A DNA stretch of 64,000 bases, taken from positions 96,001 through 160,000 of the forward strand of contig CAVTUQ010000007.1 of the NCBI GenBank assembly GCA_963737905.1. Reading direction: 5' to 3'. The notes beneath the pieces are model-generated. The model searched no databases. It saw only the letters and a list, made by a program, of their open reading frames with translations, and was not told the origin of the DNA. The translations under genes were made by a program, and so were the position numbers. Positions 16,844 to 30,987 of this stretch are shown in pieces. Source of the stretch: an uncultured delta proteobacterium. Lineage in GTDB: Bacteria > Desulfobacterota > Binatia > UBA9968. Position 1 is the stretch's first letter. Every line of letters begins with the position of its first letter.

Positions 16844-17060
16844 CATTGGTTCTAAAGATAAGTATTAGACAATTGCGGTTCCTAAGAAACCGAGGGTCAA
16901 GCTCGTCCAAGCGCGGGCAATGGGTCTGTGCCTTGTCGGCCACCACCCGATCCATCCCAGAGGTGGTTATTCCAACGGCTCGGGCCTGAACGCTTGCTTT
17001 AGGTTCGGTGCCCGCGCTTCCACGACTCGTCCCTTCGTTTCTTATGTCTATTAACCAATG
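16844..17060 (+). ncRNA. Candidate structured RNA or palindromic element (copy A of a two-member family)
   Basis: Nested inverted repeats CATTGGTT/AACCAATG, TAGACA/TGTCTA, TAAGAAAC/GTTTCTTA, AAGCGCGGGCA(16909-16919)/TGCCCGCGCTT(17009-17019); core similar to element at 29660-29911; strand inferred only from alignment with copy B. Confidence 0.55.
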
Positions 17061-17113
17061 AACTCCTTGGTAAGTGCACGAGCCCCTTTGTGGCTCGCGC
17101 AAAGAGATTGCGT

Positions 17114-18019
17114 ATGGGATACTATCTGAAATCCGGAAAAAGTGTCTGTTGGCCGGTTCTGCTCATCGCGTTGTTATTGCCGATCAGAGTACATGCGCAA
17201 ACCGATAATCAAGAACAGGTGGCAAAAGGCGATTATATTTTCTCCCTCGCGGGTGGTTGTGCTTGCCACAGCGATCCGAAGGGGACGCCACACGCTGGCG
17301 GAAGACCATTTCCCATCCCCTTCGGCACCGTTTACAGCACCAACCTCACCGCGGACGTAGACACGGGCCTTGGCGGCTGGACGGATCAACAGATTTTTGA
17401 CGCTGTAACCAAAGGGGTGACTCGCAACGGAGGTAGAACCTTGCCGCTCATGCCGTACGGTCCGTATTCGGGTATGGCCCGGGACGATCTCAGGGCGTTG
17501 ATCGCATTCCTGCGCACTCTTAAGCCGGTCAGAAAGCCGACGCCGGAATTGCAGACATCGGTTCCCATGCTTCGCAGCATTGCCGCCGAAGGATGGTTAA
17601 AGGCCTTTGGGCAGTTTTTTACTTCGCCTCCGACAGCGCCGAAGAGCGGTATTGAACGCGGCAAATATTTGACCGAGCATGTCGCGATCTGTGGCGATTG
17701 TCATACGCCGAGAAGCTCCATCGGTGTTCCAAACCGGTCGATGTACATGGCGGGAGCGGGCAAAGACATCGGTCCTCTAGGTGAGCTTGTTCCCAACATC
17801 ACCCCCGACAAAGAGACGGGAATCGGCGCCTGGAAGCGTGAAGAGATCGCCAACTTGCTAGTCACCGGCACGAAACCTGACTTGGATTACGTGCGCGGGC
17901 TCATGTACGATGCGATCCAGGGCACGTCCCATGGCTATCGCAATATGACTCGTGAAGATGCTCTGGCGATCGCGGATTACATCAAGTCGATCCCTGCGAT
18001 CAAGAATAAGGTTAAGTAA
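17114..18019 (+). CDS. Periplasmic diheme cytochrome c
   Basis: Signal peptide, two CxxCH motifs (CACH variant and CGDCH), NLT/NITPD.ETGIG.W repeats. Confidence 0.88.
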   Translation: MGYYLKSGKSVCWPVLLIALLLPIRVHAQTDNQEQVAKGDYIFSLAGGCACHSDPKGTPHAGGRPFPIPFGTVYSTNLTADVDTGLGGWTDQQIFDAVTKGVTRNGGRTLPLMPYGPYSGMARDDLRALIAFLRTLKPVRKPTPELQTSVPMLRSIAAEGWLKAFGQFFTSPPTAPKSGIERGKYLTEHVAICGDCHTPRSSIGVPNRSMYMAGAGKDIGPLGELVPNITPDKETGIGAWKREEIANLLVTGTKPDLDYVRGLMYDAIQGTSHGYRNMTREDALAIADYIKSIPAIKNKVK

Positions 18020-18090
18020 ATCTCCTTAGTGAATCCGGTGATCGGCTGTCTGAGATTCACGCAAAGCCGAAAAAATATTCGGAGGCGACA

Positions 18091-18621
18091 ATGGCGAATG
18101 TTATAGGCCTCGGTCACGTTGGGATCTATGTTCGGGACTTGGAGCGGATGGTTGGGTTTTACCGAGACACTCTTGGAATGCGTGTCACCAAGCAGAACTG
18201 GCGAGCGGGGATTGTATTCTTGACCGCGGATCCCGACGCCGCCGATCACGAGATCGCACTTTTTCGCGGGCGCCCGGAAGACGCCGATTCGCAACTAATC
18301 AATCAGATCTCGCTCCGTGTCGTGACCCTCGATGATCTGCGGAGCTTTCATCGGAAATTGGTTGTCGAGGGCTATCGCATCGACGCGGTGGTCAACCACG
18401 TGAGTGCGCTCGGCTGCTACTACTTCGACCCGGAAGGCAATCGTTCAGAAGTATTTTGGGTTACCGGGCGAGCTTGTTGGGTGCCGATTGCGCATTTGAT
18501 TGATATTGAACAGCCGGACGAAGCCGTATTCGCCGAGGTCGATCAGATATGGGCAAGACTGCAGCACGTCGGTATGGGTGAGCGAATGGCAAATGAACCC
18601 GCCACCTTGCAGCTTGATTAG
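18091..18621 (+). CDS. VOC / glyoxalase-like family protein
   Basis: LGHVGIYVRDLERM..FY...LG, YYFDPEGNRSE. Confidence 0.9.
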   Translation: MANVIGLGHVGIYVRDLERMVGFYRDTLGMRVTKQNWRAGIVFLTADPDAADHEIALFRGRPEDADSQLINQISLRVVTLDDLRSFHRKLVVEGYRIDAVVNHVSALGCYYFDPEGNRSEVFWVTGRACWVPIAHLIDIEQPDEAVFAEVDQIWARLQHVGMGERMANEPATLQLD

Positions 18622-18646
18622 CCTGAAGCGAAGAGATCTTCGCCCG

Positions 18647-18860
18647 CAAACCCTCACGCAGGTGTACGAGGCAGCGGTGCGAGCACCGACTTGTCGAGGA
18701 TTTTTACACAACAGCTAAGAGCTCTAGCGAGCGCTCCCAGACCGCTGAGGCCGACGCCCAGCACGCGGCTCGGGAGATCGCGAAGCAGCTCGCAAAGTTT
18801 TTCGTCGAACAGCGCTGGATCACCCAGGATCAGGCCGACAAACTTTTCTGGGATCGCTAG
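18647..18860 (+). pseudogene. Degraded 3' remnant of a lipoprotein gene (DUF4410-like, tentative)
   Basis: Start-less frame VEDFYTTAKSS...TAEADAQHAAREIAKQLAKFFVEQRWITQDQADKLFWDR*; family assignment from recalled similarity only. Confidence 0.4.
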
Positions 18861-18987
18861 CCTCTGCCAAGTTCATTTTTTTGGCGGGTGGAAAAAAAGG
18901 CTCGGCAAAGCCGAGACGAAAAAGCATGCCGATGAAGATACGGAAGGAGAGAATTGGTCTCGTGGAAGAGGAGACCGAAAAACGGCG

Positions 18988-20040
18988 TTAGTCCTTAAAT
19001 ATTTTCTTCACTCTTTCGATCACCTCGGCTGGCTGGTTCAGAATCTCATTAAGTACTGCTTGAAGTTCTTCTCCTGTGGAAGGGTCGACATCCATCCGGC
19101 TTTTTTTCGCCTCTGCCAATAGCTCAGGGTCTTTGATGGATTGCACGTATGCGTCCCGAAGCATTTTCACTCGATCCGCAGGCGTTCCGGGTGTCACCAG
19201 CATGAGGCGGCCGAACTCCGCGCCGCCGAGAAGTACGTAGGCGACACGGCGATTGGTTTCACTCGTCTTGTACTGGTCCATCAGTTCGTAAATGGTCGGC
19301 GCGTCGGGGACCAACGCGTCGCGTTTTCTTGTGGTTTGAACCAGATGGCGGTCGAACCCCTTTTTGTGCCAGCTATCGAATGGCTCGCGGCCATAATGAG
19401 GGTTGATCGTGTTGCCGCGGCACTGAATCTCTCCTTTCTCCACGGCCAGATCGATCTCGTTGCCGCCCGGGTAACCCATGACGGTGTTGATCTTGGCGCC
19501 GAAAGCCAGCTCGAGAACACGGTCGAGGACATAGCCCGCGCTCGATACCCCGGCGGTGCCACACTTGGGAGGCTCTTTAGCGTTGATGATGTCGCCGATC
19601 GTCTTATAGGGAGCATCGGCGCGCATATAGAGCAGCATGAAATTTTTCTCCTGCGAGCCGATGACCGAAAACTTGCGCAGATCGAACCGAACTTCGCTGT
19701 GGCCCGAGAGTTGTTCCAAATAGGTGTTGCTGTTGGGCATGAGCACGGTGAGACCGTCGGGCTTGGCCAAGCCGTAGACGTAGTTGGTTGCCACGAGCGA
19801 TCCCGCCCCCGGCATGGTTTGCACGATCATGCCCGGATTTCCGGGAAGATATTTAGGGATGAACCGGGCCAACAGTCGCGCCCAGCGGTCATAAAATCCC
19901 CCCGCTGACGCACCGACGATGATGCGAATCTGTTTTCCCTGGTAAAAGGGCTCGGTTTGTGCGTCGATTAAAGGCGGACTTGCCAGTAAGCAACCGAGCA
20001 AACCTAAAGTGAAAATTGACGTTCTGCAGTGGATTGCCAT
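18988..20040 (-). CDS. Tripartite tricarboxylate transporter substrate-binding protein (TctC/Bug-like)
   Basis: FY.GK.IRIIVG.SAGG.YD, MPGAGSL.A.NY.Y..AKPDGLT, GYPGG.EIDLAVEKGE. Confidence 0.9.
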   Translation of the reverse strand: MAIHCRTSIFTLGLLGCLLASPPLIDAQTEPFYQGKQIRIIVGASAGGFYDRWARLLARFIPKYLPGNPGMIVQTMPGAGSLVATNYVYGLAKPDGLTVLMPNSNTYLEQLSGHSEVRFDLRKFSVIGSQEKNFMLLYMRADAPYKTIGDIINAKEPPKCGTAGVSSAGYVLDRVLELAFGAKINTVMGYPGGNEIDLAVEKGEIQCRGNTINPHYGREPFDSWHKKGFDRHLVQTTRKRDALVPDAPTIYELMDQYKTSETNRRVAYVLLGGAEFGRLMLVTPGTPADRVKMLRDAYVQSIKDPELLAEAKKSRMDVDPSTGEELQAVLNEILNQPAEVIERVKKIFKD

Positions 20041-20057
20041 GCTCCCTCCACAATAAC

Positions 20058-21173
20058 TTACCAGGCAGATCCTGATCCGTGCGCTTCATGAGAAACCGGC
20101 GCGAGCACCTTGTAAGGATCGCCAAACCCAGACGCTACGTCGAGTACTTCCGGATGATGCAGCAGGGAGCGATCGAGCATGCCATGGGTGTCGACGACTA
20201 GACGATCGTCGATGTAGAGGCGTGCATTAAACACTGAGCCATCCATGTGCCTGAAGTTCGGGTGCCTGCGCGGTGTTCCGAGACCCGCCCAGGGCATCTT
20301 ACTGATTAGCTCCCAATGCATCGGATCGTCGACGCCATGCTGCGCCGAGGCTTTGGGGTGATAGCCGAACATGATTTCGATCAGACGATTGGACTCGGGA
20401 ACTTCTTTGAACAATCGCTTGCACTCTTCGCCGACTTCACCACCGCCGTCGACATCGGTAATGAGGTTGTCCTTTACTTTCCAGCGCATCGGTTTTGCTA
20501 GCTTCCCCGCGACGCCTTGGACGCAACTTAAATAAACTTCACCGTTCGACTCGCCGTCGCCGTTGAACACGCCGCACCGGCCCCAGGGGAAATGGCAGCG
20601 GCCGGGAGGGTCGCCGGCGCGGAACTGCATGCCATAAAGTCTTTTGCCGTCATACGTCGCTGTCAGATTGGTTCCCAGCGAATCTTCTATGCGAACAACT
20701 TTTCCCGCGGCGACCACGTCGCGAACTTTCTCGGCTAATTTCCAAAGGACTTTGTTGGGAAACTTTGCATAATCACGGGCCAACAGTCCGGCATTGCCTT
20801 CGAAGTAAACATGGTAGGGTTTCATTCTCTGTTCGCGTAGCTGGGTGCCGCTTTCCTCTCGCTTGCGGCCCATGGCGCGATGGGCCGGTGTGAAGGTGAT
20901 GAACACCGGCCACACCCAGATGACCACATCCGACGCCTGCATGGCCTCGAGGACCGGCTGCGGCACGCTGCCGTAACGCGCAATCGGTTCAGTAACGAGG
21001 GTCATCGGTTCGGCGCCGAAAAAGCGCACGCCCGCCGTCAGCGCTTCCAGGGTGGTTTTGTCGCTCCGCGTGTCGGCTAAAAGTAGTACCTGGTCACCCT
21101 GGCGGAGATCCGCGGCTTCGATCATATTGCGGACGCCGATCATCATATCGGCGATTGGGTAGGTCGTGGTCAT
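20058..21173 (-). CDS. M29-aminopeptidase-fold protein (NicX-like metalloenzyme candidate)
   Basis: GDQVLLLAD N-domain, GTNLTA, GEVY...G, EIMFG.HP and C-terminal H-x-D (RHMDG). Confidence 0.6.
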   Translation of the reverse strand: MTTTYPIADMMIGVRNMIEAADLRQGDQVLLLADTRSDKTTLEALTAGVRFFGAEPMTLVTEPIARYGSVPQPVLEAMQASDVVIWVWPVFITFTPAHRAMGRKREESGTQLREQRMKPYHVYFEGNAGLLARDYAKFPNKVLWKLAEKVRDVVAAGKVVRIEDSLGTNLTATYDGKRLYGMQFRAGDPPGRCHFPWGRCGVFNGDGESNGEVYLSCVQGVAGKLAKPMRWKVKDNLITDVDGGGEVGEECKRLFKEVPESNRLIEIMFGYHPKASAQHGVDDPMHWELISKMPWAGLGTPRRHPNFRHMDGSVFNARLYIDDRLVVDTHGMLDRSLLHHPEVLDVASGFGDPYKVLAPVSHEAHGSGSAW

Positions 21174-21194
21174 GCTTTCTCCTTCATCGCTCTA

Positions 21195-22199
21195 CTACGG
21201 GGTTGGTTCCCATCCGGCCGTTTTTAGCTCGCGGTAGATTTTCTTAGCGATGCTGTAATCGAAAAACTTACCGACATCCGCCGGCACCGGCACGCCGACC
21301 AGCTCCGCACGCATAGCCACGTCTTCCTTTAATACATCGTCGGGCACCCAGCCTTCGGCGGTCAAAACCGGACGTGTTGAATCGTAATCAAATTCATTGA
21401 ATTCAGGCTTGCGCTGGGTGTACTTGCCGATAATCGGAATCGTCTGCTCCCGGTAACGCCGCGCGTATTCTCTGCCTTTGATAACGCCGCGTAGAAAGCG
21501 TTCTACCAGATTCGGCTGGCGCGCCAACAATAGATTGGGAACCGCCAAACCGACGTAGGCGAAACGAATCTCTTTTTGCGTGTCGCCAAGCATGTGTCCT
21601 TTGGGCTGCTTGAGTTGGACAAAATCACCGGCACCCAATGGCACGGCGTCGACGGTGCCCGTTTGCAGAGCAGCGAGTCTCGCCCCGCCGAAGCCCACTG
21701 CAATATAAACAACGGAATTGGCGTCTATGCCGTGCTTGCGCAGGAGCAGGCGCACCGACAGCTCCTGCGTATCACCGCGGCTGGTGACGCCCACGCGCTT
21801 GCCAATCAAATCCTTCAGATTCTTGATCTCGGGTCGCGCGGACCAGAGTTGATACCCGGGACGGTCGATATTGGTGTAAATCACCTTATCTCCGCGCCAC
21901 GCAACATCGCGGTGAGCGCGGACCCGGCCGAGGTGCTGAAATGAAGGTCGCCGGCGATCAGCGCCTGGGTAGCAATGCCGCCACCTGCCCGGATCATCTC
22001 CACCGTGAAACCCTCGCCGCGGTGATAACCTTTTTCGATGGCGACGAATTCGTCCATGTAGCTGGCGGTGATCGCGGCGACGGAAAACCTTACCTTTTCT
22101 TCCACGCTCGCCGCATGAACAAATTCGTATTGGCAACCAAGAAATGCCGAAAATGAGCGATAGCGGAAGTAGGACTCGGGACGAGAACATCACAAGCAT
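21195..22199 (-). CDS. NMT1/THI5-SsuA-type solute-binding protein with internal frameshifts
   Basis: Segment 21881-22105 in another frame (VRFSVAAITASYMD...KGY) aligns with paralog 25391-26389; C-terminal part in the main ORF. Confidence 0.8.
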   Translation of the reverse strand: MLVMFSSRVLLPLSLIFGISWLPIRICSCGERGRKGKVFRRRDHRQLHGRIRRHRKRLSPRRGFHGGDDPGRWRHCYPGADRRRPSFQHLGRVRAHRDVAWRGDKVIYTNIDRPGYQLWSARPEIKNLKDLIGKRVGVTSRGDTQELSVRLLLRKHGIDANSVVYIAVGFGGARLAALQTGTVDAVPLGAGDFVQLKQPKGHMLGDTQKEIRFAYVGLAVPNLLLARQPNLVERFLRGVIKGREYARRYREQTIPIIGKYTQRKPEFNEFDYDSTRPVLTAEGWVPDDVLKEDVAMRAELVGVPVPADVGKFFDYSIAKKIYRELKTAGWEPTP

Positions 22200-22463
22200 G
22201 CCCGCCCCAGATCGTTGGAGGGAAGAACTCCGTGCTCGATACGCTCCAACCCAACAACTCTGTTTTCGATGGACATGCCAATGACTCCTCAACTGGACTC
22301 TATATATTAGGCAAGGAAGTCAGACAAGCTGTAAGTCAAGCTGCAGGCGCTTGCGTTTTGTCGCCCCGAAAGGTTATGCAAAATGAACGGTGCGCGGGAT
22401 AACGGATGGGACAGCGGCCTCCAAGCGAGGCGAGCTCTGAAATTCCGAGTTGAGTAACCAACA

Positions 22464-23414
22464 ATGGAGATTGGACTGCTGTTGCATACGCGTCAGATGA
22501 TCCGGCAGGAGGACGCGGCGAAGAGTTTCGAGCAACTCTGGTCGGATGCGGCTCAGGCGGAGGAGCTAGGCTTCGACCATATCTGGTTGGGTGACAGCGT
22601 TACGGTTTTGGACAAAGCTCGCGGCGATTGCCTGACCACTATGGCCGCACTGGCGGCGCGGACGAGTAGAATGAGAATCGGTGCGGTACCGATGCTCCCC
22701 GCGTTAAGAAATCCGGTCTTGTTAGCCCATGCGCTTGCAACGCTGGATGTGATCTCGAAAGGCCGGATTGTTCTCGGCGTCAGTGTGGGGCCCGTCAGGG
22801 ATTACATCCAGCGACAATTCGCTGCTTGCGGTGTCCCGCCCCAGGAAAAAGCGGGACGCTTGAGTGAGTCCATCGAGATCATGCGCCGGCTTTGGAGCGA
22901 AACAACCGTCAACTACGACGGGCGTTACTATCAATTAAAGGACGTCGGGATTCTGCCTCATCCCGCGCAAAAGCAGGGGATACCCATCTGGATCGCCGCG
23001 GACAGAAACGAAAACGGTTTCAAGCGGGTAGGGCGCTTGGGAGACGGTTGGGTCACCTTGGCGCCGACAGTGGAGAGGTTTGCCGCGGCACGGCAGAAGA
23101 TCGATCGGTATGCCCAAGAGCATGGCCGCGTTGGAAAATGCTGGCCCAGCGCGTTATTTGCGGCTTTCAATATTCAAGCCGATGGCGATCGCGCTAGAAA
23201 TGAGGGTTGGCAGTGGATGGAACGGTTCTTCGGGCAACCCAAAGAAAGGCTCGGCCACTTCTTCGCTATTTTCGGCACGCCAGAGGAATGTAGCTCCTTG
23301 TTGAAAGGATACGCCGAAGCGGGGTTGACCGCGATTATCGCGCGGATCGCGTCGGACGACGTACGCGGTCAAGAGAGTCTATTGCTTAACGAGATCAAGC
23401 CCCGTCTCGCATGA
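22464..23414 (+). CDS. LLM-class oxidoreductase
   Basis: AEELGFDHIWLGDS, LRNPVLLA..LATLD.ISKGR, P.P.Q..GIPIWIA. Confidence 0.92.
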   Translation: MEIGLLLHTRQMIRQEDAAKSFEQLWSDAAQAEELGFDHIWLGDSVTVLDKARGDCLTTMAALAARTSRMRIGAVPMLPALRNPVLLAHALATLDVISKGRIVLGVSVGPVRDYIQRQFAACGVPPQEKAGRLSESIEIMRRLWSETTVNYDGRYYQLKDVGILPHPAQKQGIPIWIAADRNENGFKRVGRLGDGWVTLAPTVERFAAARQKIDRYAQEHGRVGKCWPSALFAAFNIQADGDRARNEGWQWMERFFGQPKERLGHFFAIFGTPEECSSLLKGYAEAGLTAIIARIASDDVRGQESLLLNEIKPRLA

Positions 23415-23418
23415 TGGT

Positions 23419-24387
23419 ATGGAACGACTGCGTCTCAGTTTGTCCTGCAACGAATATGACCGAACACGTTTTTTGGTGGACGGCAGAGTGCAAGCCGAAG
23501 GTATCGATTTGGACGTCGTCGCGTTGCCGTCGGAAGAGCGTCATCGAAGGTTTTCCCGCGATCTGGAATTCGACGTGTGCGAGCTCCAGATGGGCGTCTT
23601 TCTCGGTTGGATGGGTCGCGGCGCGCCGTTCACCGCGATCCCCGTGTTTCCTCATCGTAAGTTTTGTCACGGCAACGTGCTCATCAACATCGCCAGCGGT
23701 ATTCAAAGACCCGAGGAGCTTGCCGGCAAGATTATCGGCATGCGTGCCCACTTCAATCCGGTATCGCTCTGGATGCGTGGCGTACTCCAGGAAGAATACG
23801 GCGTGGCGGTGCGATCACTCAAGATTCGGACGAATCAGCAGGAGCAGGTCCCGGGCTGGCAGCCACCGGATTGGATGAAAATCGAGCGCCTACCGAAGGG
23901 ACAAAAAGTGGAAGATGGATTGATCAGCGGTGCAATCGACGCCTGCATGCTGCCGGAGATAAATCCGAAGCTGGCCAGCCATACGGCCGGAGTGAAGCGC
24001 TTATGGCCCAATTTTCGCGAAACGGAAAAAGACTATTATTTGCGCACCAAGATCTTTCCGATTCGCCACGTCGTCGTTGTGAAAAATTCAGTTCTGGAAC
24101 GTTATCCGTGGGCGGCGCAGAGTCTCGTCGAAGCCTTTGCCAAAGCCAAGGAGATAGGGATCAAGCATGTGAGCGATACGCGGCGATCTTTTCTGGCTTG
24201 GTATGGCGCAGAACTGGAAGAAGAGAGGGAGCTTTTTGGCGAAGATCCGTGGCCCTACAATATCAAAGATAATCGAATCGTGCTGGAAACGATGACGCGC
24301 TACGCTCAGATGGTTGGGATTACGGACCGCAAGTTGGAGATTAAAGAGCTGTTCGCCGAGAGCGCGTTGGACGGCGAGTCCGTTTGA
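23419..24387 (+). CDS. 4,5-dihydroxyphthalate decarboxylase-like protein (SBP fold)
   Basis: YDRT..L.DGRV..EGIDL, FDVCE, IPVFPHRKF.H, IFPIRHVVVVK, GEDPWPY. Confidence 0.85.
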   Translation: MERLRLSLSCNEYDRTRFLVDGRVQAEGIDLDVVALPSEERHRRFSRDLEFDVCELQMGVFLGWMGRGAPFTAIPVFPHRKFCHGNVLINIASGIQRPEELAGKIIGMRAHFNPVSLWMRGVLQEEYGVAVRSLKIRTNQQEQVPGWQPPDWMKIERLPKGQKVEDGLISGAIDACMLPEINPKLASHTAGVKRLWPNFRETEKDYYLRTKIFPIRHVVVVKNSVLERYPWAAQSLVEAFAKAKEIGIKHVSDTRRSFLAWYGAELEEERELFGEDPWPYNIKDNRIVLETMTRYAQMVGITDRKLEIKELFAESALDGESV

Positions 24388-24460
24388 AAAGCTGAAGGAC
24401 TCTTGGATCTAATCCGAAGGTTTGAATTTTGTGACTGGGAATCGGCCGTTGCTCACCGTT

Positions 24461-24540
24461 GTCATTCCCGCGCAAGCGGGAATCCAGGTCTTTTTCTAAA
24501 GCGCACCACGAACCTGGATGCCCGCTTTCGCGAGCATGAC
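24461..24540. repeat. REP-like double-hairpin element of the GTCATTCCCGCG-N-GCGGGAATCCAG class
   Basis: GTCATTCCCGCGCAAGCGGGAATCCAGG followed by an inverted degenerate copy CCTGGATGCCCGCTTTCGCGAGCATGAC, between convergent genes. Confidence 0.8.
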
Positions 24541-24594
24541 GAACCATCATCTAGCCTGAACACAAGAGGATCTATATTGTCCCTGAACAAGCAA

Positions 24595-25386
24595 CTATTT
24601 ATTTTCCTCCGCTCCCGCCCGGGCCCACTCCGGACGATAACGGTCATCGGTGACTCCGGCCACGGTGTAACCGCCGTCGACGTAGAGGATCGTTCCCGTT
24701 ATATAACTGGCCCCGTCGGAAGCGAGGAAGACGCAGGGCTCAACCATGTCTTCCGGCGTCTCGGTTCGGCCCAGCGGCAGCCGGCGGACGCGTTCGAGAA
24801 CACCGGGGTTGTAAGGCTTTCGCGCCGTGTTGCCCCGAGCTACCGCATTCACGTTGATGCCGTAAAATCCCAGCGCGTGCGCCGCCGCGCGTGTAAGGCC
24901 GTTGACCGCGCCGCGATCCGCTGTCCATGAGGCCGCTTGGCCGGGCCCCAATACACCGACGATGGAGCTTAGATTGATGATTTTCCCGTAGCGCTGTTTC
25001 ACCATCTGCCGGGCGGCCGCTTGGCAGGTGAGAAAATAGCTCTTCACGCCTCGGCTTAACGAATCGTCGAAGTCTTCTTCCTTAAAATTCAGAAACTCTT
25101 GGTTGTGGGAAGCCATGGTGGTGTTGACGAGGATGTCGATGCGGCCGAATGTCTGGATGACTTGATCCACCATCGCATCGACTTCGGCGCGCTGGCGCAG
25201 ATCGACGGCGAGCGCCAAAGCACGCCGGCCCCGTTGCCGCACTTTGTCCGCCGCGGTGTCGGCGTCGGCCTGTTTGAAATCGGCACAAACAATGTCGCAG
25301 CCCTCAGCGGCAAATCCGGGCACGATGGCCGAGCCAAATTCGCCGTTGCAACCCGTGACGATGGCTATTTTTCCTTGAAGTCTCAT
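24595..25386 (-). CDS. SDR family oxidoreductase (atypical active site)
   Basis: LQGKIAIVTG, FGRIDILVN, IINLSS, YITG..LYVDGG; YxxxK replaced by WTADR. Confidence 0.9.
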   Translation of the reverse strand: MRLQGKIAIVTGCNGEFGSAIVPGFAAEGCDIVCADFKQADADTAADKVRQRGRRALALAVDLRQRAEVDAMVDQVIQTFGRIDILVNTTMASHNQEFLNFKEEDFDDSLSRGVKSYFLTCQAAARQMVKQRYGKIINLSSIVGVLGPGQAASWTADRGAVNGLTRAAAHALGFYGINVNAVARGNTARKPYNPGVLERVRRLPLGRTETPEDMVEPCVFLASDGASYITGTILYVDGGYTVAGVTDDRYRPEWARAGAEENK

Positions 25387-25390
25387 GATC

Positions 25391-26389
25391 TTATCGAACC
25401 GGCTGCCAGCCGGTCGCTTTGAGCTGAGCGTAGTTTTTTTTGGTAATGCTGTAATCGAACACGGCCGATATGTTAGGCGGATTGGCGGCTTTGGTCAGCT
25501 CTGCGCGAGTTGCGATTTCCTCCCTTAGAACATCGTCAGGCAACGACCCGTCTTCGGTCATGCTCGCTCTGGTCACTTCGTAATCGACCTTGATGGCATC
25601 CAGAGGAGAAGGATCGCGCTTGCTGATGAGCGCAATCGTCTCGTCCCGATAACGTCGTGCGAACTCCCGGCCCTTGGCCAGGCCGCGCAGAAATCGCTCT
25701 ACCAGTTGCGGGTTTTCGGCCAAAAGCTTGCTGGACACGGCAACGCCATTCCAAACCAATTGGATCTCCTTGCCTAAATCCGCAAGCACGATATGTTTTT
25801 GCTCTTTCAAAACGACCATGTCGCGGGGCACCAGTGGCGCGGCGTCGATGGCACCGGAACGTAGCGCGGGAAAACGGACTTCATTTCTCCCAACGGCGAT
25901 GAAAAGCACGGACGACGGATTGACGCCCATTTTTTTGAGATAGAGAATCGTCGATAGATGGCCGGTATCGCCAAAACTATTAATCGCGATTTTTCTTCCA
26001 ACCAGATCTTTCGCTGACGTGATATCCGGTTTTATCGAAACCAGGCTATAGCTCGGCCGCGAAAGATTGGTATAGACGATTTTCACCGGCCCGCCGCGCA
26101 CCGCGGCGCTGACCGCCGAACTTGCCGAGCTGCTGAATTGAAACTGCCCCGACAATAGACCTGGAGTCGCGACGCCGCCCGGAGCGCGGATGACTTCGAT
26201 ATTCAGTCCATCTTCGCGAAAGTATCCTTTGTCCATCGCGCAAATATGGTCCATATAGGCCGCGCTGAGCGTGGCGTAAGATACGCGTATGCTGTCCGCC
26301 GCGGTGGCGGAAGATTCAATGACGAGCAACAGAACGAGGGACCACCACGCTCGCCTTCTGGCCATTGCTTTGTCAAAAGGCCCGTCCAT
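25391..26389 (-). CDS. NMT1/THI5-SsuA-type solute-binding protein
   Basis: Signal peptide, KGYFREDGL.IE, DLVGRKIAI, AL.SGAIDA; start may be 26365. Confidence 0.88.
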   Translation of the reverse strand: MDGPFDKAMARRRAWWSLVLLLVIESSATAADSIRVSYATLSAAYMDHICAMDKGYFREDGLNIEVIRAPGGVATPGLLSGQFQFSSSASSAVSAAVRGGPVKIVYTNLSRPSYSLVSIKPDITSAKDLVGRKIAINSFGDTGHLSTILYLKKMGVNPSSVLFIAVGRNEVRFPALRSGAIDAAPLVPRDMVVLKEQKHIVLADLGKEIQLVWNGVAVSSKLLAENPQLVERFLRGLAKGREFARRYRDETIALISKRDPSPLDAIKVDYEVTRASMTEDGSLPDDVLREEIATRAELTKAANPPNISAVFDYSITKKNYAQLKATGWQPVR

Positions 26390-26397
26390 CTAGGTTC

Positions 26398-27273
26398 TCA
26401 AACCGGCTGACCGGCCCGTTTGGCGCGCTCGATGTATTCATCGGCCAGGCGCACCGGATTTCTGGTGTAGAGGATGATCCGGATGGTGGCCATGTCGCCG
26501 ATATTACGGTGCGAAGTTCCCGGAGGAATCAACAGGAAGTCACCGGTCTCGAGCATATATTCTCCCTGGTTGGTAAGGGTTGCGCGCCGGCCGGACAGTT
26601 GAAAAGCGACTTCGTCCTGTCCGAATCCCCGGTGATAGATTCTTTGCGCATCCGAACGGTAGGTGGTTTCGATCATGATGTCGGCGTTTTCAACCAGCTC
26701 GAAATGCTTGCCGCCGGAGCCTCCTTCTTCGACCTTATCGAGCACCGTCTTCGGCTTCAGCAAGGTACATTGCTTATTGGGCACAACGCTCTCTTTGACG
26801 GGGTAAGTTTGGGCGATCTGGACGGGACTGCGGGTATAAACGATGAGTCGCGTGGCGGGGGCTTCTCCCCGATTTTCGTGGCTGATGCTTGCCGGCACGA
26901 CGAGAACGTCGCCTTCGTCCAGCTCGAAGTCGCCTTCGGACGTCTTGGTGACGCGTCTATTCTGCACTTGAATCTGTGTCTCACAAAATCCCGCGGGCCT
27001 GCGGCCATCTTCACCTTTCGACGATCGGCAGTGCATCAGCTCAATCCGCACGTCATCGTTGATAAAGATCGGGATCTGTTTGGTATCGGTGTCGCCGGGA
27101 AGATCCTTGGCCAGCAAATTCAACGGGGCAATGAGTCGGCAGGCCCTCTCCGGTTTTTCCTTGCAGCCAACGATATCTACTTCTTCATCCACTTCCTTCC
27201 ATACCCGCTCGGTCTTGGGACCGATATTACCGATGAACGACAGCGTGTTAATTTCCTTGAATTTGGTTCCCAT
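26398..27273 (-). CDS. Bicupin protein, putative ring-cleaving dioxygenase-like
   Basis: Two internal repeats GD.L..P...SH.N.G....R.I.YTR.PV; second repeat has YHR...QDE...H metal motif. Confidence 0.7.
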   Translation of the reverse strand: MGTKFKEINTLSFIGNIGPKTERVWKEVDEEVDIVGCKEKPERACRLIAPLNLLAKDLPGDTDTKQIPIFINDDVRIELMHCRSSKGEDGRRPAGFCETQIQVQNRRVTKTSEGDFELDEGDVLVVPASISHENRGEAPATRLIVYTRSPVQIAQTYPVKESVVPNKQCTLLKPKTVLDKVEEGGSGGKHFELVENADIMIETTYRSDAQRIYHRGFGQDEVAFQLSGRRATLTNQGEYMLETGDFLLIPPGTSHRNIGDMATIRIILYTRNPVRLADEYIERAKRAGQPV

Positions 27274-27300
27274 GTAACCGCGCTCCTTGGAAACTCTGGG

Positions 27301-28110
27301 TTATTTGTTTTCGGATGGAACTTCGAATTTACCCCAAGTCCGGCCCCAGCTTGGGCGGAAACTGTCCTCGGTGACGGCTGCATTCGAATAGCCGGCATCG
27401 ACGTAGAGGCTCTCGCCGGCGACAAAATTCGAATCGTCCGTGGCCAAAAAAATCGCCGCGCCGACCAGATCTTCGGGTTTACCGAGCCGGCCCAAGGGAA
27501 TACGCCGCAGGCGCTCTCCCGCTTCCTCGCTAGTTCCCGAAAAACTCTCCATGGGTCCGCAGACGAGGGAATTCACGTTGACGCCATAAAATCCCAGCGC
27601 CTGTGCAATGGCCCGGGTCATGGACTCGATGCTCGAATAGGCGGCGCTGTTCCCGGTGGATTCGCCTGATGCAATCCTCCCATCGGTGGTCGAAAGATTG
27701 ATGATCTTGCCGGAGCGCTGCCCGGCCATCTGGCGGCCGACTGCCTGGCAAGCGAGGAAATAAGCTTTGGGCCCGCGATCGATGCACTGGTTAAATGCTT
27801 CTTCAGCAAGACTTAAAAAATCGCTCTCGTGCGTGATCCCTGAACAGTTAAGCAGCACGTCGATACGCCCGAACTCGGCAAGGGCACGCCGCACGGCCTC
27901 TTCGATTTCAGATTTTTTTGTGACGTCGCACTGGAGTGCTAGAGTTTCGCGGCCAAGCGCGCGCACTTCCGCTGCCAGCAGTTCCGCTTGCTTACGGTTT
28001 GCATCGATCACGACGCAATTGGCACCTTCGCGGGCGAATCCGATGGCGATTGCACGGGCGCACGGGTGCTGCGCGCTGGTTATGAAGACGATTTTATCTC
28101 TAAGTCTCAT
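27301..28110 (-). CDS. SDR family oxidoreductase (atypical)
   Basis: LRDKIVFIT, FGRIDVLLN, IINLST, GESLYVDAG; paralog of 24595-25386; lacks GxxxGxG and YxxxK. Confidence 0.85.
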   Translation of the reverse strand: MRLRDKIVFITSAQHPCARAIAIGFAREGANCVVIDANRKQAELLAAEVRALGRETLALQCDVTKKSEIEEAVRRALAEFGRIDVLLNCSGITHESDFLSLAEEAFNQCIDRGPKAYFLACQAVGRQMAGQRSGKIINLSTTDGRIASGESTGNSAAYSSIESMTRAIAQALGFYGVNVNSLVCGPMESFSGTSEEAGERLRRIPLGRLGKPEDLVGAAIFLATDDSNFVAGESLYVDAGYSNAAVTEDSFRPSWGRTWGKFEVPSENK

Positions 28111-28211
28111 CCAATGATTCTCGAGCGGACGAGGCGCCGACAAACAGTCTCTAACAGAAGGCGAATCTGACTGTCAAATCAACGGGCGCTCGGCGGCACC
28201 ACAAGTAAGAG

Positions 28212-29240
28212 TCACTTGTCGAGTAATCGTCTCACGCGCTCGACCACCTCTGGAGGTTGCGCTATGACGTCGCGGGCTAGTGCTTGCAGTTCCTCGCCGG
28301 CGACAGGGTCGATATCCAATTTCCGTTCTCTGGCTTGGGCTTGAAAATCGGGGTCGTTTAGAGTTTTTCTAAAAGCGCTCTGAAGAAGTTTCGCGCGGTC
28401 CGGCGGGAGTCCCGGTGAACTGATGTAGGGCCGGCCGAACGCCCCCACCGCAAGTATGACTGTCGCGAGGCGTTTCCCCGCCTCGGTTGTCTTATTTTCG
28501 TTCATGAGTTCCCAGATGGTCGGAACATCAGGCAACCTCGGGTCGCGCTTTTTGCCGGTTTGTATCAACACGCGGACAAAACCATTCTTAGACCAGCCGA
28601 TAAGTGGTTCGCGTCCGAACAGAGTTTCCAAAGAGATGCCGCGGCATTGGATCTCTCCCCGCTCTACGGCCAAGTCGACTTCAGGGCCATCCTTGTAGCC
28701 GGTGAGCGTATTGAATTTTGCTCCGAGGGTTTCCTCCAGAAGGTTTCCAACGTAGTAACCTGTCGAAGCTGTGCCGGTGGCGCCGCACTTGGGTGGAACG
28801 GCCGCTTTACGCACGTCGTCGAGCGTTTTGTAGGGAGTGTCGGCGCGGATGTAGATGATCTGTTCCACCTGGGTCGGAGTGCCGAGCCAAGTAAACTTTG
28901 GCCAATCAAACTGAACTTGGTTTCTCCCCACGAGCTGATCGAAATAGAGTCCGGCCCGAATTCCTCCCAGCGTTAGCCCATCGGGCTTGGCGACTTTGTA
29001 AACGTAGTTGGCCGCGATCATCGCACCGGCGCCGGGCATATTCTGGACGACGATATTTGGACTCCCGGGAATGTACTTGACCAGATATTGGGCGATCATC
29101 CGCGTCCATGCATCATCGACGCTACCCGCGCCGTAGCCGGCGACGATTCTCAAAGTTTTGTCTTGATAGAACGGCGCCTGGGCCAATGCGTTGACGGGTG
29201 AAACAAGGACGAGAGCGAGAACTAAAAGGAATTTGTTCAT
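28212..29240 (-). CDS. Tripartite tricarboxylate transporter substrate-binding protein (TctC/Bug-like)
   Basis: FY.DKT.RIV.GY.AG..DD, NMPGAG.MIAANYVY.VAKPDGLT; ATG 29240 with GGGAGGG RBS. Confidence 0.9.
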   Translation of the reverse strand: MNKFLLVLALVLVSPVNALAQAPFYQDKTLRIVAGYGAGSVDDAWTRMIAQYLVKYIPGSPNIVVQNMPGAGAMIAANYVYKVAKPDGLTLGGIRAGLYFDQLVGRNQVQFDWPKFTWLGTPTQVEQIIYIRADTPYKTLDDVRKAAVPPKCGATGTASTGYYVGNLLEETLGAKFNTLTGYKDGPEVDLAVERGEIQCRGISLETLFGREPLIGWSKNGFVRVLIQTGKKRDPRLPDVPTIWELMNENKTTEAGKRLATVILAVGAFGRPYISSPGLPPDRAKLLQSAFRKTLNDPDFQAQARERKLDIDPVAGEELQALARDVIAQPPEVVERVRRLLDK

Positions 29241-29349
29241 GGCAACCCTCCCCGTGCGTGATTTGTTGGCGCCGATCATACTCAATTTGCCGCAAAACAT
29301 ACAACAGAACCTTCCCATTAAACCGAGCTTTGTTTGGGCCGAAAAAAAC

Positions 29350-29642
29350 CATTCGTGCAAAGAGCGCGGGTAACGGCCGCGATCACCCCGGGTGTGGTTT
29401 GCTGCCAGCACGGCTGGTGGCAAGATTGTAAGGACCTCGACCTGCCGGGCTACGATTCTTACGGTAAGGGCTCAGCCAATCCCAGCCTGTTGATCGGCGC
29501 CGATGTGGCCGATCCGATCAGCGGCTCATTGCCGCATCGATCCTATCTTTGCCGCGTGCGGCCGGCCGCGGAGCAATCGCCAAAGAAGTCTGCCAGCCCG
29601 CATTCACCCGGCGACATCGACATGATTCAAAAATCTCCCTGA
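29350..29642 (+). pseudogene. 3' remnant of a molybdopterin oxidoreductase (dinucleotide-binding domain)
   Basis: RARVT..I.PGVV..QHGWW...AN...DPISGSLPHRSYLCRV with no upstream body. Confidence 0.75.
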
Positions 29643-29659
29643 TTGCCGCGACGGGGGAC

Positions 29660-29911
29660 CTAGCCCGGACTATTCATGCTCCCAGGAAAACCCACGACAC
29701 AGTGTCGATCAAGGGGCGAGCTTGGAGGAGCGAAGGCACAGAGGCGAACAGTTCCAATGACGATTAGGGTGTTTGGCCTTGCGCTCGAATTTTTTCCCAG
29801 GTATTCGCTTCAGAACTTAGGTTTGCAGGCCGCCTCCAGGTAGAGGCCCATTGCCTTCGCTCCTGAGAGCTCGCCCTTGATCATTGTTCGCCAGCGAATA
29901 GTCCGGGCTAG
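29660..29911. mobile_element. MITE-like element with perfect 16-bp terminal inverted repeats and internal long hairpin (copy B)
   Basis: CTAGCCCGGACTATTC (29660-29675) and GAATAGTCCGGGCTAG (29896-29911); inner IR 29707-29738 / 29852-29882; no transposase. Confidence 0.7.
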
Positions 29912-30987
29912 CGCAGCGCTGGAAGGATTTCCTTGCCCCAGAGATCGATCACCTCGGGAATATCGGGGCCGAGGGGAACGCCGATCGCAACCTGCGTGAA
30001 TCCATCGCGGGCCGCCAGCGAGAATAGTTCCGCGATCCGCTCGCTGCACTGCGCCGCTGTGCCGGCGATGATCAGACGATCGACGGCTTCGTCAGGCGTG
30101 AGAGAGGCGGCGTGGTCGACGCCGCGATTTTCCGCGTACGCTTGGCGCACCATTTGAATCGCCCGCGGGTCGATGCCTTTGGCCTCGAGAACCTCGTCCG
30201 GCCAGCCGGAGACGATATGGGAGACGAAACGTTTCGCGTGCTGTCTGGCGGCCTCGCCGTCGCGCGAAACCGAGGCGTTGAGCAGCATCACTTTGCGCAA
30301 CGGCTCTCGCAGCGGGGATTGCGACCGCGCGGAGTGAAGACGCGCAAGCGAGGCGCTCATGTCGGCAATCCCATAGAGAGTTTGGAGAATCACGCCGTCG
30401 AAGTGGCGCGCGATAAGGTCGAGCACGGCGGGCTTGAGCAGACTCGGACCATAGTAAAGACGGATGGGCGACTGGGTTTTGAAGCGCAGCGCGTATTGTT
30501 CCGCGTTCAAATGAAAATAGGAAGCCAGAATAGGAATATCGGCGCTTCGGAGCGCCTCGCCGGCGAACAGTTTCCGCAATCCCATGGCCAATTCGGCCAT
30601 GATGGCGAGCGGTTTCGCGCGTTCGACTTGATGCGTCAGGATCGACCTCGATCCAGGCCCCAGGCCGAGGGAGATTTCTCTCCCGTTGGTGAGCTCGGAT
30701 ATCGTCGCGAAGGCCATCGCTAGATCCACCGGGTTACGAAAGTAGGGAACCGTGACGGCGGTTCCGAGCTTGACCGGCAAGCGTGCCACGATCGCCGCCG
30801 AGCTTGCTAGCACGCTTCGATATTCCAGATTGTCGTTGGTCCAAACCTGGCTGAAACCGAGTTTCCTCAACGTCTGCCACGCCTGCTCGGCCAGCCCGAT
30901 CAAATCCGGGAGCGAGTAACGATTGAGAACGTGAAGCGGATAGTGTATCCCGATTTCTCCGGTAAATTCTTTTGCTTGGATGGCCAT
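29908..30987 (-). CDS. LLM-class oxidoreductase (Mer-like, divergent)
   Basis: GFSQVW.ND, LGTAVTVPYFRNPV, GREISLGLGPG, IAGT..QC.ERI. Confidence 0.85.
   Translation of the reverse strand: MAIQAKEFTGEIGIHYPLHVLNRYSLPDLIGLAEQAWQTLRKLGFSQVWTNDNLEYRSVLASSAAIVARLPVKLGTAVTVPYFRNPVDLAMAFATISELTNGREISLGLGPGSRSILTHQVERAKPLAIMAELAMGLRKLFAGEALRSADIPILASYFHLNAEQYALRFKTQSPIRLYYGPSLLKPAVLDLIARHFDGVILQTLYGIADMSASLARLHSARSQSPLREPLRKVMLLNASVSRDGEAARQHAKRFVSHIVSGWPDEVLEAKGIDPRAIQMVRQAYAENRGVDHAASLTPDEAVDRLIIAGTAAQCSERIAELFSLAARDGFTQVAIGVPLGPDIPEVIDLWGKEILPALR

Follow-up and report, generated by a model that had tools for sequence, protein, structure and literature searches.

The two hairpin-forming intergenic elements of the 64-kb window (the whole stretch of DNA that was analysed, C7:96001-160000 of a 6.7 Mb, 87% complete genome assembly designated here as G000) were found to belong to a family of MITEs of Candidatus Binatia-type MAGs, which, judged from their ends and flanks, are very probably mobilised by IS1380-family transposases. 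They represent a commonplace type of repeat in bacteria rather than a new RNA gene. A previous sequence-only reading had proposed the pair as a candidate family of structured RNAs or palindromic elements. The hairpins, referred to as A and B, were located at the positions given there with the sequences as quoted, 25 of 35 positions agree between their 5′ cores when counted on the sequence, and the 11-bp stems are perfect in both copies, the three differences between them each being compensated on the opposite arm. The two dispersed elements are thus real, but they are not an isolated pair, as the genome harbours about 50 copies, and each extends beyond the hairpin first described (A, ~16851-17070; B, 29664-29907). 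A and B are the sole copies of the family within the window.

Copy A (about 16851..17070, + strand) is a MITE of ~220 bp of the A-type subfamily, as delimited by its profile match and by reading its ends. Its nhmmer match with a 247-position model corresponds to window positions 16884-17062, and the alignment with A-type copies of relatives spans 16858 to 17077. The left inverted repeat lacks a few bases, making that end degenerate, and the right end is intact, with an A-type terminal inverted repeat (17046..17070, +) that differs at one position from the TAYTAAGGAGTTCATWRGT motif of the opposite strand and is followed by TA. The 5′ core (16893-16927, +) was read in the sequence, and the inner stem, with AAGCGCGGGCA as its 5′ arm (16909..16919, +) and TGCCCGCGCTT as its 3′ arm (17009..17019, +), was supported by both sequence and fold. 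The neighbours of copy A are DUF1345-like and cytochrome c genes, which are unrelated to the TctC-family receptor and luciferase-like monooxygenase genes that neighbour copy B.

Copy B (29664..29907, − strand) is a complete B-type MITE of 244 bp without its flanks, a long imperfect palindrome with a full-length nhmmer match (model positions 2-246 of 247, E=2e-62). It is flanked on the left (29908..29911) and on the right (29660..29663) by CTAG, the putative target-site duplication, and the upstream luciferase-like monooxygenase gene (29908-30987) takes its stop codon from the TAG of the left flank. The left and right terminal inverted repeats, CCCGGACTATTCG (29895..29907) and TGAATAGTCCGGG (29664..29676), carry a motif that is also present at the ends of IS1380-family elements. 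Inward of these lie the 5′ core (29877-29844) and an inner stem, evident from sequence and fold, with a 13-nt 5′ arm (29852..29864) that contains the 11-nt arm first noted and a 3′ arm at 29726..29738. The right arm furthermore encompasses a small hairpin followed by a T-rich run (29695..29707), which is part of an extra ~18-20 nt; as the left arm is without these, the element is asymmetric. All features of copy B are given for the − strand.

A single extended hairpin was predicted for each region, at −73.8 kcal/mol (z −5.2) for A and −86.6 kcal/mol (z −4.8) for B, with 0 of 200 shuffles as stable in either case, and the RNA fold of full copy B reached −106 (+) or −111 (−) kcal/mol. The similarity between A and B is not due to chance, because a profile grown from B alone recovers A (E=1e-12) and one grown from A alone recovers B (E=3e-29). 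Iterative nhmmer searches of the genome yielded 6, 11, 39 and 47 matches when started from A, and 34, 46, 48 and 48 when started from B, both series converging on the same sites. With the 247-position model, which includes the ends, 56 matches were obtained on many contigs at a threshold of E≤1e-3, 41 of which cover at least 170 model positions. Full elements are long imperfect palindromes that measure ~245 bp in the B type and ~220 bp in the A type, ranging from 194 to 267 bp. Most of the 24 end-complete copies conform to N-CTAG-CCYGGATTATTCA ... TGAATAATCCRGG-CTAG-N, i.e. B-type ends, and the 13 pairs of the terminal inverted repeats were 70.6% paired over 35 copies. An inner hairpin core, consisting of the GGCAAT...TGCC stem and adjoining arms, is common to subfamilies with different outer ends (A versus B type). 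The elements are predicted from ORF calls to be non-coding and to lack a transposase gene: 28 of the 31 ORFs called over copies measure 80-152 aa, and the remaining three (264-484 aa) extend in from flanking sequence. All 41 copies whose context was assessed are intergenic, with 22 between tandem, 12 between convergent and 7 between divergent genes. Within the same taxonomic family, the elements occur in 16 of the 24 other genomes; in two sister families they occur in one of five and in none of 11 genomes, respectively. Exact core matches among 185,579 species genomes were confined to 33 contigs, all titled as Candidatus Binatia, Deltaproteobacteria or Thermodesulfobacteriota MAGs.

CTAG was observed on both sides of most complete copies. 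In five copies the left flank departs from CTAG at the fourth base, and in four of these the same base recurs on the right (left/right pairs CTAA/CTAA twice, CTAT/CTAT and CTAA/ATAA), while the first flank base differs between left and right in eight copies and matches in none. A target-site duplication of 4 bp is most likely on these flanks; a duplication of 3 bp (TAN) or 2 bp (TA) retains some probability because the varying first base never matches. According to ISfinder, IS1380-family duplications measure 4-5 bp, which a 4-bp duplication would fit. In A-type copies the flanks are constant only for TA, and a clear 4-bp repeat was not seen. Mobility is indicated by two sites that are filled in relatives and uninterrupted in this genome: that of L080 (genome G001), which corresponds to a single CTAG on C11, and that of L068 (genome G015), which corresponds to a single TTAG on C20. 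Two more syntenic empty sites were found, with junctions too diverged to be read. Contigs from public runs break at copy B, where word depth is 80 versus 8-11 in run X1, and the contigs of four public runs contained no joint across it. By their sequence, these elements have the hallmarks of MITEs: small size, terminal inverted repeats, flanking direct repeats, many dispersed copies, and filled versus empty sites.

Insertion sequences of the IS1380 family that bear the same ends and CTAG flanks were identified in this genome, in its genus and in its family. The sole IS1380 transposase gene of this genome, as determined by tblastn, is located at C15:30389-31735 (NF033539, 353 bits versus a cut-off of 180) and begins ~100 bp behind CTAG|CCTGAATTTTTCACC. 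Its product departs from that of its relative after about residue 423, and the right inverted repeat of this element was looked for and not found; an intact autonomous partner was not assembled in this genome, which is 87% complete and in which, as elsewhere, repeats often go unassembled. The relative, an 87%-identical transposase in a genome of the same genus (L092 in G002), belongs to an element bounded by CTAG|CCCGGATTTCTCACC ... GGTGAGAAATTCGGG|CTAG with its arms 1708 bp apart. A second IS1380 type, with a protein of 34% identity (E=3e-66), is present in G001 (same genus) and G065, spans ~1.6-1.67 kb and is bounded by CTAG|CCCGSATTATTCATGGTT ... AACCATGAATAATCCGGG|CTAG. In both types the motif is present at each terminus of the IS, next to CTAG, in several copies whose flanks differ. 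In total, the same 13-17 nt ends with CTAG flanks were found on IS1380 elements L044/L091, L092, L094, L095, L096 and L098. The exact 17-mer pattern CTAGCCYGRATTWTTCA was present at 18 of 98 loci examined, five of which are IS loci (two representing the same C15 element), with the match sitting at the IS end. The ends of a further IS1380 element, L093 of the unpublished genome G012, agree with this pattern of termini. Since the likeness between MITE and IS is confined to the terminal ~14-24 bp, and the MITE profile matched the C15 IS end at E=2.5 only, the MITE does not appear to have arisen simply by internal deletion from the IS copies found. For A-type ends, no IS1380 match as a partner was present in 14 loci (10 with a single A-type end and four others).

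The flanks would also suit a MITE of another DDE family, with a duplication of TA only inside CTAG (IS630/Tc1-like) or of 3 bp (IS5-like subgroups), its match to IS1380 ends being convergent or derived from nested insertions. CTAG flanks alone fit a duplication of TA, TAG or CTAG equally, and the constant TA of A-type copies and the eight unmatched first bases are consistent with the shorter forms; the genome furthermore contains five DDE_3 and 14 DDE_Tnp_1 matches. However, none of the 22 transposase loci besides the IS1380 one has a family-like end within 3 kb, and the same holds for the five DDE_3 loci relevant to the IS630/Tc1 reading; two IS1380 types bear the motif at both ends beside CTAG in several copies, and in four of five variant copies the left and right flanks vary together at their fourth base, favouring a duplication longer than TA. 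Mobilisation by another DDE family is accordingly graded as very improbable, and IS1380-family transposases are retained as the most likely agents.

Covariation of the arms was evident, with 33 of 47 pairs showing changes on both sides and 123 doubly changed cells; shuffles gave 47.7 ± 5.7 such cells (0/500) and slid controls 32-59. Of the 936 changed pairs between consensus sequences of six subfamilies, 187 (20%) had changed on both sides while remaining paired, as against 25 of 522 (4.8%) within subfamilies, in a comparison that employs MFE structures of the consensus sequences and HMM columns and is rough in the element interior. The arm covariation is real, and lies mainly between subfamilies. 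Private substitutions occurred at a rate of 9.2% in paired columns and 10.5% in unpaired ones. The sequence-only reading was right in seeing a dispersed palindromic element family with covarying arms, whereas its claim of structure under selection applies to the differences between subfamilies and not to resident copies, which mutate about equally in stems and loops. From the between-subfamily covariation and this similar mutation of stems and loops, we infer that any selection would bear on the ability of the element to spread, not on a host RNA. Compensated changes between subfamilies, set against neutral decay of residents, would represent a clean case of selection at the level of the element rather than of the host.

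A structured ncRNA or cis-regulatory (riboswitch-like) leader, with its hairpin kept for a host RNA function, might be expected to show the strong folds and significant covariation reported above, and several further observations agree with it: G-U cells are frequent and A-C cells scarce among the four innermost pairs when read in the orientation chosen, A and B each have a same-strand gene downstream, and pieces of the family occur in contigs of one soil metatranscriptome library, support that is weak because DNA carry-over is possible. Conversely, the genome carries about 50 copies with terminal inverted repeats and CTAG flanks, presence varies at syntenic sites of related genomes, and neighbouring genes are unrelated. 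Orientation relative to tandem genes was unbiased (13 same, nine opposite). Among 58 copies folded on both strands, 19 folded more stably as the + strand and 39 as the − strand, with a mean difference of 4.0 ± 7.6 kcal/mol on about −90 and a sign that varies by subfamily; neither strand folds consistently better. Stems accumulate private substitutions about as often as loops. No Rfam family matched the window at gathering score, and matches at E≤10 were at chance level only, e.g. a plant miRNA hairpin with 16.6 bits versus a threshold of 100. An ncRNA as the primary nature of the element is largely refuted, and this reading is held to be very improbable. The element is accordingly regarded as neither a new riboswitch nor a new sRNA, which removes a false lead.

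REP doublets are much smaller than the ~245-bp elements described here. A REPIN-like or IS200/IS605-type element, mobilised as ssDNA through recognition of the hairpin by a Y1 (RAYT/HUH) transposase, is extremely improbable: the genome has five PF01797 (Y1_Tnp) matches and the hairpin shows compensated changes as REPINs do in the available account (PMC3116915), but a 3-kb neighbourhood of these five loci is devoid of family members (best E=6.4), and the terminal inverted repeats of at least 13 nt with repeated CTAG are identical to the ends of DDE-type IS1380 insertion sequences. Of the earlier suggestions, a mobile unit goes in the right direction, while a REPIN/RAYT attribution and the ssDNA hairpin for a HUH or tyrosine enzyme are not supported.

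In the favoured scenario, i.e. mobilisation by IS1380-family elements, their DDE transposases would recognise in trans the terminal inverted repeats (CCYGGATTATTCA...) and insert the elements at CTAG, most likely duplicating those 4 bp. Copies would gather between genes, often directly behind a stop codon as with copy B, because the genome has few CTAG sites and these frequently include a TAG stop. The hairpin would merely consist of the two inverted arms, and the compensated differences between A and B may have arisen in lineages of ‘master’ copies that kept spawning copies, each inserted copy then decaying roughly neutrally. The likeness of the arms may be explained either by a need for it in transposase use or in hairpin formation during transposition, or by occasional copying of one arm onto the other. 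Excision of piggyBac elements is precise. It is conceivable, albeit unlikely, that the inner hairpin core is not filler but a functional transposition module, comprising symmetric sub-terminal transposase-binding sites or a cruciform/hairpin intermediate of a CTAG-specific IS1380 clade, as a bacterial counterpart of TTAA-specific piggyBac and possibly with precise excision; this is suggested because the core is common to A and B subfamilies, the arms co-evolve in proliferating lineages and the arms are asymmetric. If so, these MITEs would constitute a natural mutational map of IS1380/piggyBac-like transposase recognition beyond the terminal repeats.

The present assignment would connect CTAG-specific transposases of the IS1380 family with a MITE family, a link not found in the partly covered literature on IS1380 and MITEs, and annotates a repeat family at about 50 intergenic sites per genome in uncultured soil and freshwater Binatia, where such repeats break assemblies. 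The Binatia element shares its terminal inverted repeats and CTAG flanks with IS1380-family insertion sequences (NF033539) of this genome, genus and family, and differs from them in measuring 220-250 bp rather than 1.6-1.75 kb, in lacking a transposase gene and in having an unrelated interior.

Bacterial MITEs with a matching IS are described, in the available parts of the sources, for Nezha/ISNpu3 of cyanobacteria and Chunjie of Geobacter (PMC3184786) and for MITEPye1/IS1182 of Paracoccus (PMC11578231). The Binatia elements resemble these accounts in their small size, absence of a transposase gene, IS-like inverted repeats, flanking direct repeats, very stable predicted hairpin, intergenic location and filled versus empty sites in relatives. 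They differ from what is given there in that their associated IS is of the IS1380 family, the target is the palindromic CTAG, the host belongs to the uncultured Binatia lineage, the likeness to the IS spans only the terminal ~14-24 bp, and subfamilies share a core and differ in outer ends. Compensatory base-pair changes that keep a hairpin or cruciform are likewise reported in dispersed bcr1 repeats of Bacillus (PMC3184786), and hairpin-keeping changes in dispersed REPINs of Pseudomonas (PMC3116915); as presented in the accessible text of these sources, the direct repeats of bcr1 measure 5 bp and its cruciform comprises two stem-loops, REPINs are doublets of REP sequences associated with RAYT genes, and neither has IS1380-type ends. 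Finally, IS1380 transposases are placed as the prokaryotic outgroup of piggyBac transposases, and a conserved flanking TTAA tetranucleotide is retained by piggyBac elements, in the sections available of PMC10813416. Like piggyBac as outlined there, the Binatia elements are flanked by a palindromic tetranucleotide with a central TA, their target being CTAG rather than TTAA and their host bacterial.

The hairpin regions of copies A and B, the two elements noticed in the window by the sequence-only reading, were first compared with its description of them. The quoted sequences agreed exactly with the window, a manual count showed 25 of 35 positions of the 5' cores to be identical, and the three differences between the 11-bp stems of A and B were each accompanied by a complementary change on the opposite arm, all as claimed. 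The inner stem arms are located at 16909-16919 and 17009-17019 (+) in copy A and at 29864-29852 and 29738-29726 (-) in copy B. Both regions were predicted to fold into a single long hairpin (-73.8 kcal/mol, z -5.2 for A; -86.6 kcal/mol, z -4.8 for B), with none of 200 shuffles being as stable in either case.

BLAST-type searches of the host assembly (6.7 Mb, 46 contigs, GC 54.5%, 87% complete) revealed many relatives of both copies. Iterative nhmmer searches of the same genome returned 6, 11, 39 and 47 matches per round when seeded with A alone and 34, 46, 48 and 48 when seeded with B alone, and both runs ended on identical sites; the A-grown profile recovered B (E=3e-29) and the B-grown profile recovered A (E=1e-12). 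Copies A and B are members of one dispersed family, not an isolated pair. As the flanks of the first alignment were also conserved, the element was found to be longer than the hairpin originally described. A 247-position profile including the ends yielded 56 matches at E<=1e-3 in the host genome, 41 of which span at least 170 model positions, while within the window A and B were the sole family matches. One of the 41 duplicates another exactly: the copies at C25:358511-358754 and C46:7810-8053 are identical, as are their flanks over 110 bp or more on either side, which suggests that the assembly, whose estimated contamination is 6.7%, contains redundant contigs or a duplicated region.

Complete copies of the common types read N-CTAG-CCYGGATTATTCA ... 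TGAATAATCCRGG-CTAG-N and are 194-267 bp in length. Copy B occupies 29664-29907 (-), with ends and CTAG flanks (29908-29911 and 29660-29663) read from the sequence. Over its full length the element forms an imperfect palindrome, extended in the right arm by approximately 18-20 bases that include a small hairpin and a T-rich run. A terminator scan identified one small terminator-like hairpin in the right arm of B, at a frequency similar to that in shuffles, and a promoter scan detected no promoter-like site. The subfamily of copy A (about 16851 to 17070, +; right end intact to 17070, left end lacking a few bases) comprises six copies in the host genome, and has in common with the other copies an inner stretch of ~55 nt on the left and one of ~45 nt on the right. 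Its interior is different, as are its outer ends, TAYTAAGGAGTTCAT... and ...ATGAACTCCTTAGTA, followed by TA. A pattern search over 61 genomes of the bacterial family located the A-type end motif in 23, where it is usually paired with a second copy at a distance of 210-230 bp. At C10:27649-27871, C9:111790-112016 and the right flank of C9:144868, the outer arms of the family are kept around swapped interiors rich in short TTGAAC/GTTCAA-like repeats; these may represent mosaic MITEs (small non-autonomous DNA transposons) or another small repeat family nested within this one.

With copy B as query, the family was detected in 18 of 41 genomes, namely the host genome, 16 of the 24 further genomes of its family, and 1/5 and 0/11 genomes in two sister families; the unpublished genomes G006 and G012 contribute one match each to these tallies. 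In a 185,579-species collection, an exact 23-base core pattern was present on 33 contigs, all of them from metagenome-assembled genomes titled Candidatus Binatia, Deltaproteobacteria or Thermodesulfobacteriota.

Judged from their sequences, these elements are a MITE family, the ends and target of which match IS1380-family insertion sequences (ISs) of the same lineage. Their size, absence of a transposase gene, IS-like inverted repeats, direct repeats, many copies, and filled and empty sites correspond to usual MITE criteria listed in PMC3184786 and PMC11578231. A limited literature search, which is not proof of absence, retrieved no MITE assigned to IS1380 and nothing on Binatia repeats.

Transposase domain matches in the host genome consisted of 14 DDE_Tnp_1, 5 DDE_3 and 5 Y1_Tnp. 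When the family profile was compared with 22 transposase loci (+/-3 kb), one relevant match was obtained, a weak one (E=2.5) on contig C15. It marks the left end of an element there, reads CTAG-CCTGAATTTTTCACC and precedes a transposase gene by ~100 bp. The product of this gene belongs to the IS1380 family of transposases (353 bits with NF033539, cut-off 180). Used as a query against 61 genomes of the same bacterial family, it identified a relative with 87% identity in G002, a genome of the same genus, another with 88% identity in the unpublished G012, on which no conclusion rests, and a second IS1380 type with 39-41% identity over the aligned part. The second type was found in G065 (four copies; 34% identity to the C15 protein over 429 residues, E=3e-66) and in G001, of the same genus, where the copy carries three in-frame TGA codons. 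The boundaries of the G002 IS read CTAG-CCCGGATTTCTCACC ... GGTGAGAAATTCGGG-CTAG, with arms 1708 bp apart, and those of the second type CTAG-CCCGSATTATTCATGGTT ... AACCATGAATAATCCGGG-CTAG, about 1.6-1.67 kb in length and enclosing a 445-aa ORF. As both sets of IS ends match the MITE ends, two IS1380 lineages of this bacterial family carry the terminal 13-19 bases of the MITE together with the same CTAG flanks; past the ends, MITE and IS sequences are unrelated. The exact pattern CTAGCCYGRATTWTTCA was present in 18 of 98 loci examined, with a chance expectation of ~3e-6 per 3-kb locus by our estimate. Five of the 18 are IS loci (two being the same C15 element), and in these the match sits at the IS end.

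The C15 copy is the sole IS1380 gene detected by tblastn in the host assembly, which is 87% complete. The left end of this element (C15:30290-31735; loci L044 and L091) is intact and flanked by CTAG. From about residue 423 onwards its reading frame no longer follows that of its relative, and a right inverted repeat was not detected beyond it; truncation of the copy or a join made in assembly could account for this. A tRNA-like sequence behind the shortened gene was considered and dropped, as ARAGORN finds no tRNA. A 16-mer scan of the host genome for an autonomous element with B-type ends (up to 3 mismatches) gave 80 matches, and no pair at IS distance was apparent among the matches listed. 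For A-type ends, no IS1380 transposase was present in 14 loci (10 single-end and four others) from the pattern search of 61 genomes. At five loci in relatives (L185, L186, L192, L195 and L201), lone A-type end motifs of ~20 nt were observed, unaccompanied by an IS1380 gene or by a second end recognisable within 1.5 kb; these could be solo ends, strongly diverged MITEs or ends of a putative partner element.

Insertion was examined by comparing the flanks of MITE copies in relatives with the host genome, where four of six filled sites with both flanks on one contig were aligned. The filled site L080 of G001 corresponds to uninterrupted host sequence on C11 with a single CTAG, and L068 of G015 to uninterrupted sequence on C20 with a single TTAG; at the other two, the intergenic sequence was too diverged for the junction to be read. 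When empty sites for copies A and B were sought in G001, G002, G004, G010 and G023, the flanking genes lay on separate contigs or in other contexts, and these five genomes yielded no legible empty site. The IS1380 family is characterized by target duplications of 4-5 bp, as recorded in ISfinder. From row readings of the flanks, a duplication of 4 bp is favoured here, because in the five copies whose fourth left flank base is not G the same base recurs on the right in four (CTAA/CTAA twice, CTAT/CTAT and CTAA/ATAA), a match expected in ~1 in 4 cases by chance if the base belonged to the element. The first flank base, when variable, matched in 0 of 8 cases, and lengths of 3 or 2 bp would also be compatible.

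Of six palindromic tetranucleotides counted in the host genome, CTAG is the least frequent, with 7,367 sites (GATC, 46,748; TTAA, 12,291), or ~0.3 of the number expected from base composition by our calculation. This strong under-representation leaves few sites for an element specific to CTAG, and many of these sites coincide with stop codons. The stop codon of an ORF of at least 100 codons is provided by a terminal flank in 7 of 23 end-complete copies. Copy B is among them, since the TAG stop codon of the upstream gene (29908-30987) lies within its first CTAG (29908-29911).

The new structured RNA proposed as one option by the sequence-only reading was not borne out, the elements being assigned to a MITE family. 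In support of such an RNA are the stable hairpins and compensated stems, and an RNA library (X18) whose contigs contain family-member fragments, although DNA carry-over is possible and these contigs are uninformative on transcript ends and strand. Parts of the copy B locus were found in 20 public runs (soil and freshwater metagenomes); contigs of X1, X5 and X7 (DNA) and of X18 break at copy B, where word depth rises, and none spans the element or shows a joint across it. On a crude gene map based on longest ORFs, all 41 host copies are intergenic (22 tandem, 12 convergent and 7 divergent), with 13 of the tandem copies oriented with the genes and nine opposite. Among 58 distinct end-complete copies from the host and relatives (59 before removal of one identical sequence), the better-folding strand was + in 19 and - in 39, with a mean difference of 4.0 +/- 7.6 kcal/mol on about -90; no strand preference was consistent across the copies, and its sign varied by subfamily. 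For this reason, the predominance of G-U relative to A-C cells seen at the innermost four pairs is not a family-wide strand signal. Identity with an Rfam RNA was rejected, as the entire window gave no match at gathering score and searches around A and B at E up to 10 gave chance-level matches only. A REPIN/RAYT system and an IS630-type element were likewise rejected, as +/-3 kb profile scans found no family match near Y1_Tnp loci and no family-like end near DDE_3 loci.

A look at neighbouring genes had been suggested as a way of finding a recurring transposase, nuclease or reverse transcriptase; those beside A (a cytochrome c and, below cut-off, a DUF1345-like protein) proved unrelated to those beside B (a TctC-family receptor and a luciferase-like monooxygenase). 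The TctC-family gene (tripartite tricarboxylate transporter receptor; 28212-29423, -), downstream of copy B, is one of a very large group of paralogues: in each of the five relatives searched, its first 600 bases match dozens of sites at 66-70% DNA identity.

Covariation was assessed in 35 of the 41 copies, excluding the duplicate and five whose interiors are replaced or highly divergent, using a structure of 47 pairs (13 terminal repeat, 30 arm and 4 inner) derived from the same alignment. Shuffles gave 71.4% pairing cells and slid controls 33-42%, compared with 77.5% in the actual alignment; 33 pairs were changed on both sides (21.8 +/- 2.4 in shuffles, 14-23 in slid controls), and doubly changed cells numbered 123 (47.7 +/- 5.7 in shuffles, 0/500; 32-59 in slid controls), counts that are inflated by the relatedness of the copies, the structure also having been drawn from the same sequences. 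The arms thus covary beyond both controls, as had been suspected from the two window copies, and the lower values in the slid controls argue for a real signal. RNAalifold on its own predicted 18 pairs, of which 12 show compensated changes. When the 58 copies were clustered and the six clusters with at least three members (42 copies) were retained, 187 of 936 changed pairs (20%) between cluster consensus sequences were altered on both sides and still paired, compared with 25 of 522 (4.8%) within clusters; pairing was retained in 187 of 297 double changes between clusters. Private substitutions affected 9.2% of paired versus 10.5% of unpaired columns. The picture is one of arms co-evolving in copy-producing lineages and of inserted copies decaying about neutrally, and therefore of the element, not the host, as the level at which selection, or copying from arm to arm, operates.

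Recognition of this MITE family is of use in annotation. Compensatory changes have been described in other dispersed bacterial repeats, namely bcr1 (PMC3184786) and REPINs (PMC3116915). As a CTAG-targeting MITE, the element is also of mild interest for piggyBac-like target logic, IS1380 transposases being reported as the prokaryotic outgroup of piggyBac, at the flanks of which TTAA is kept (PMC10813416).
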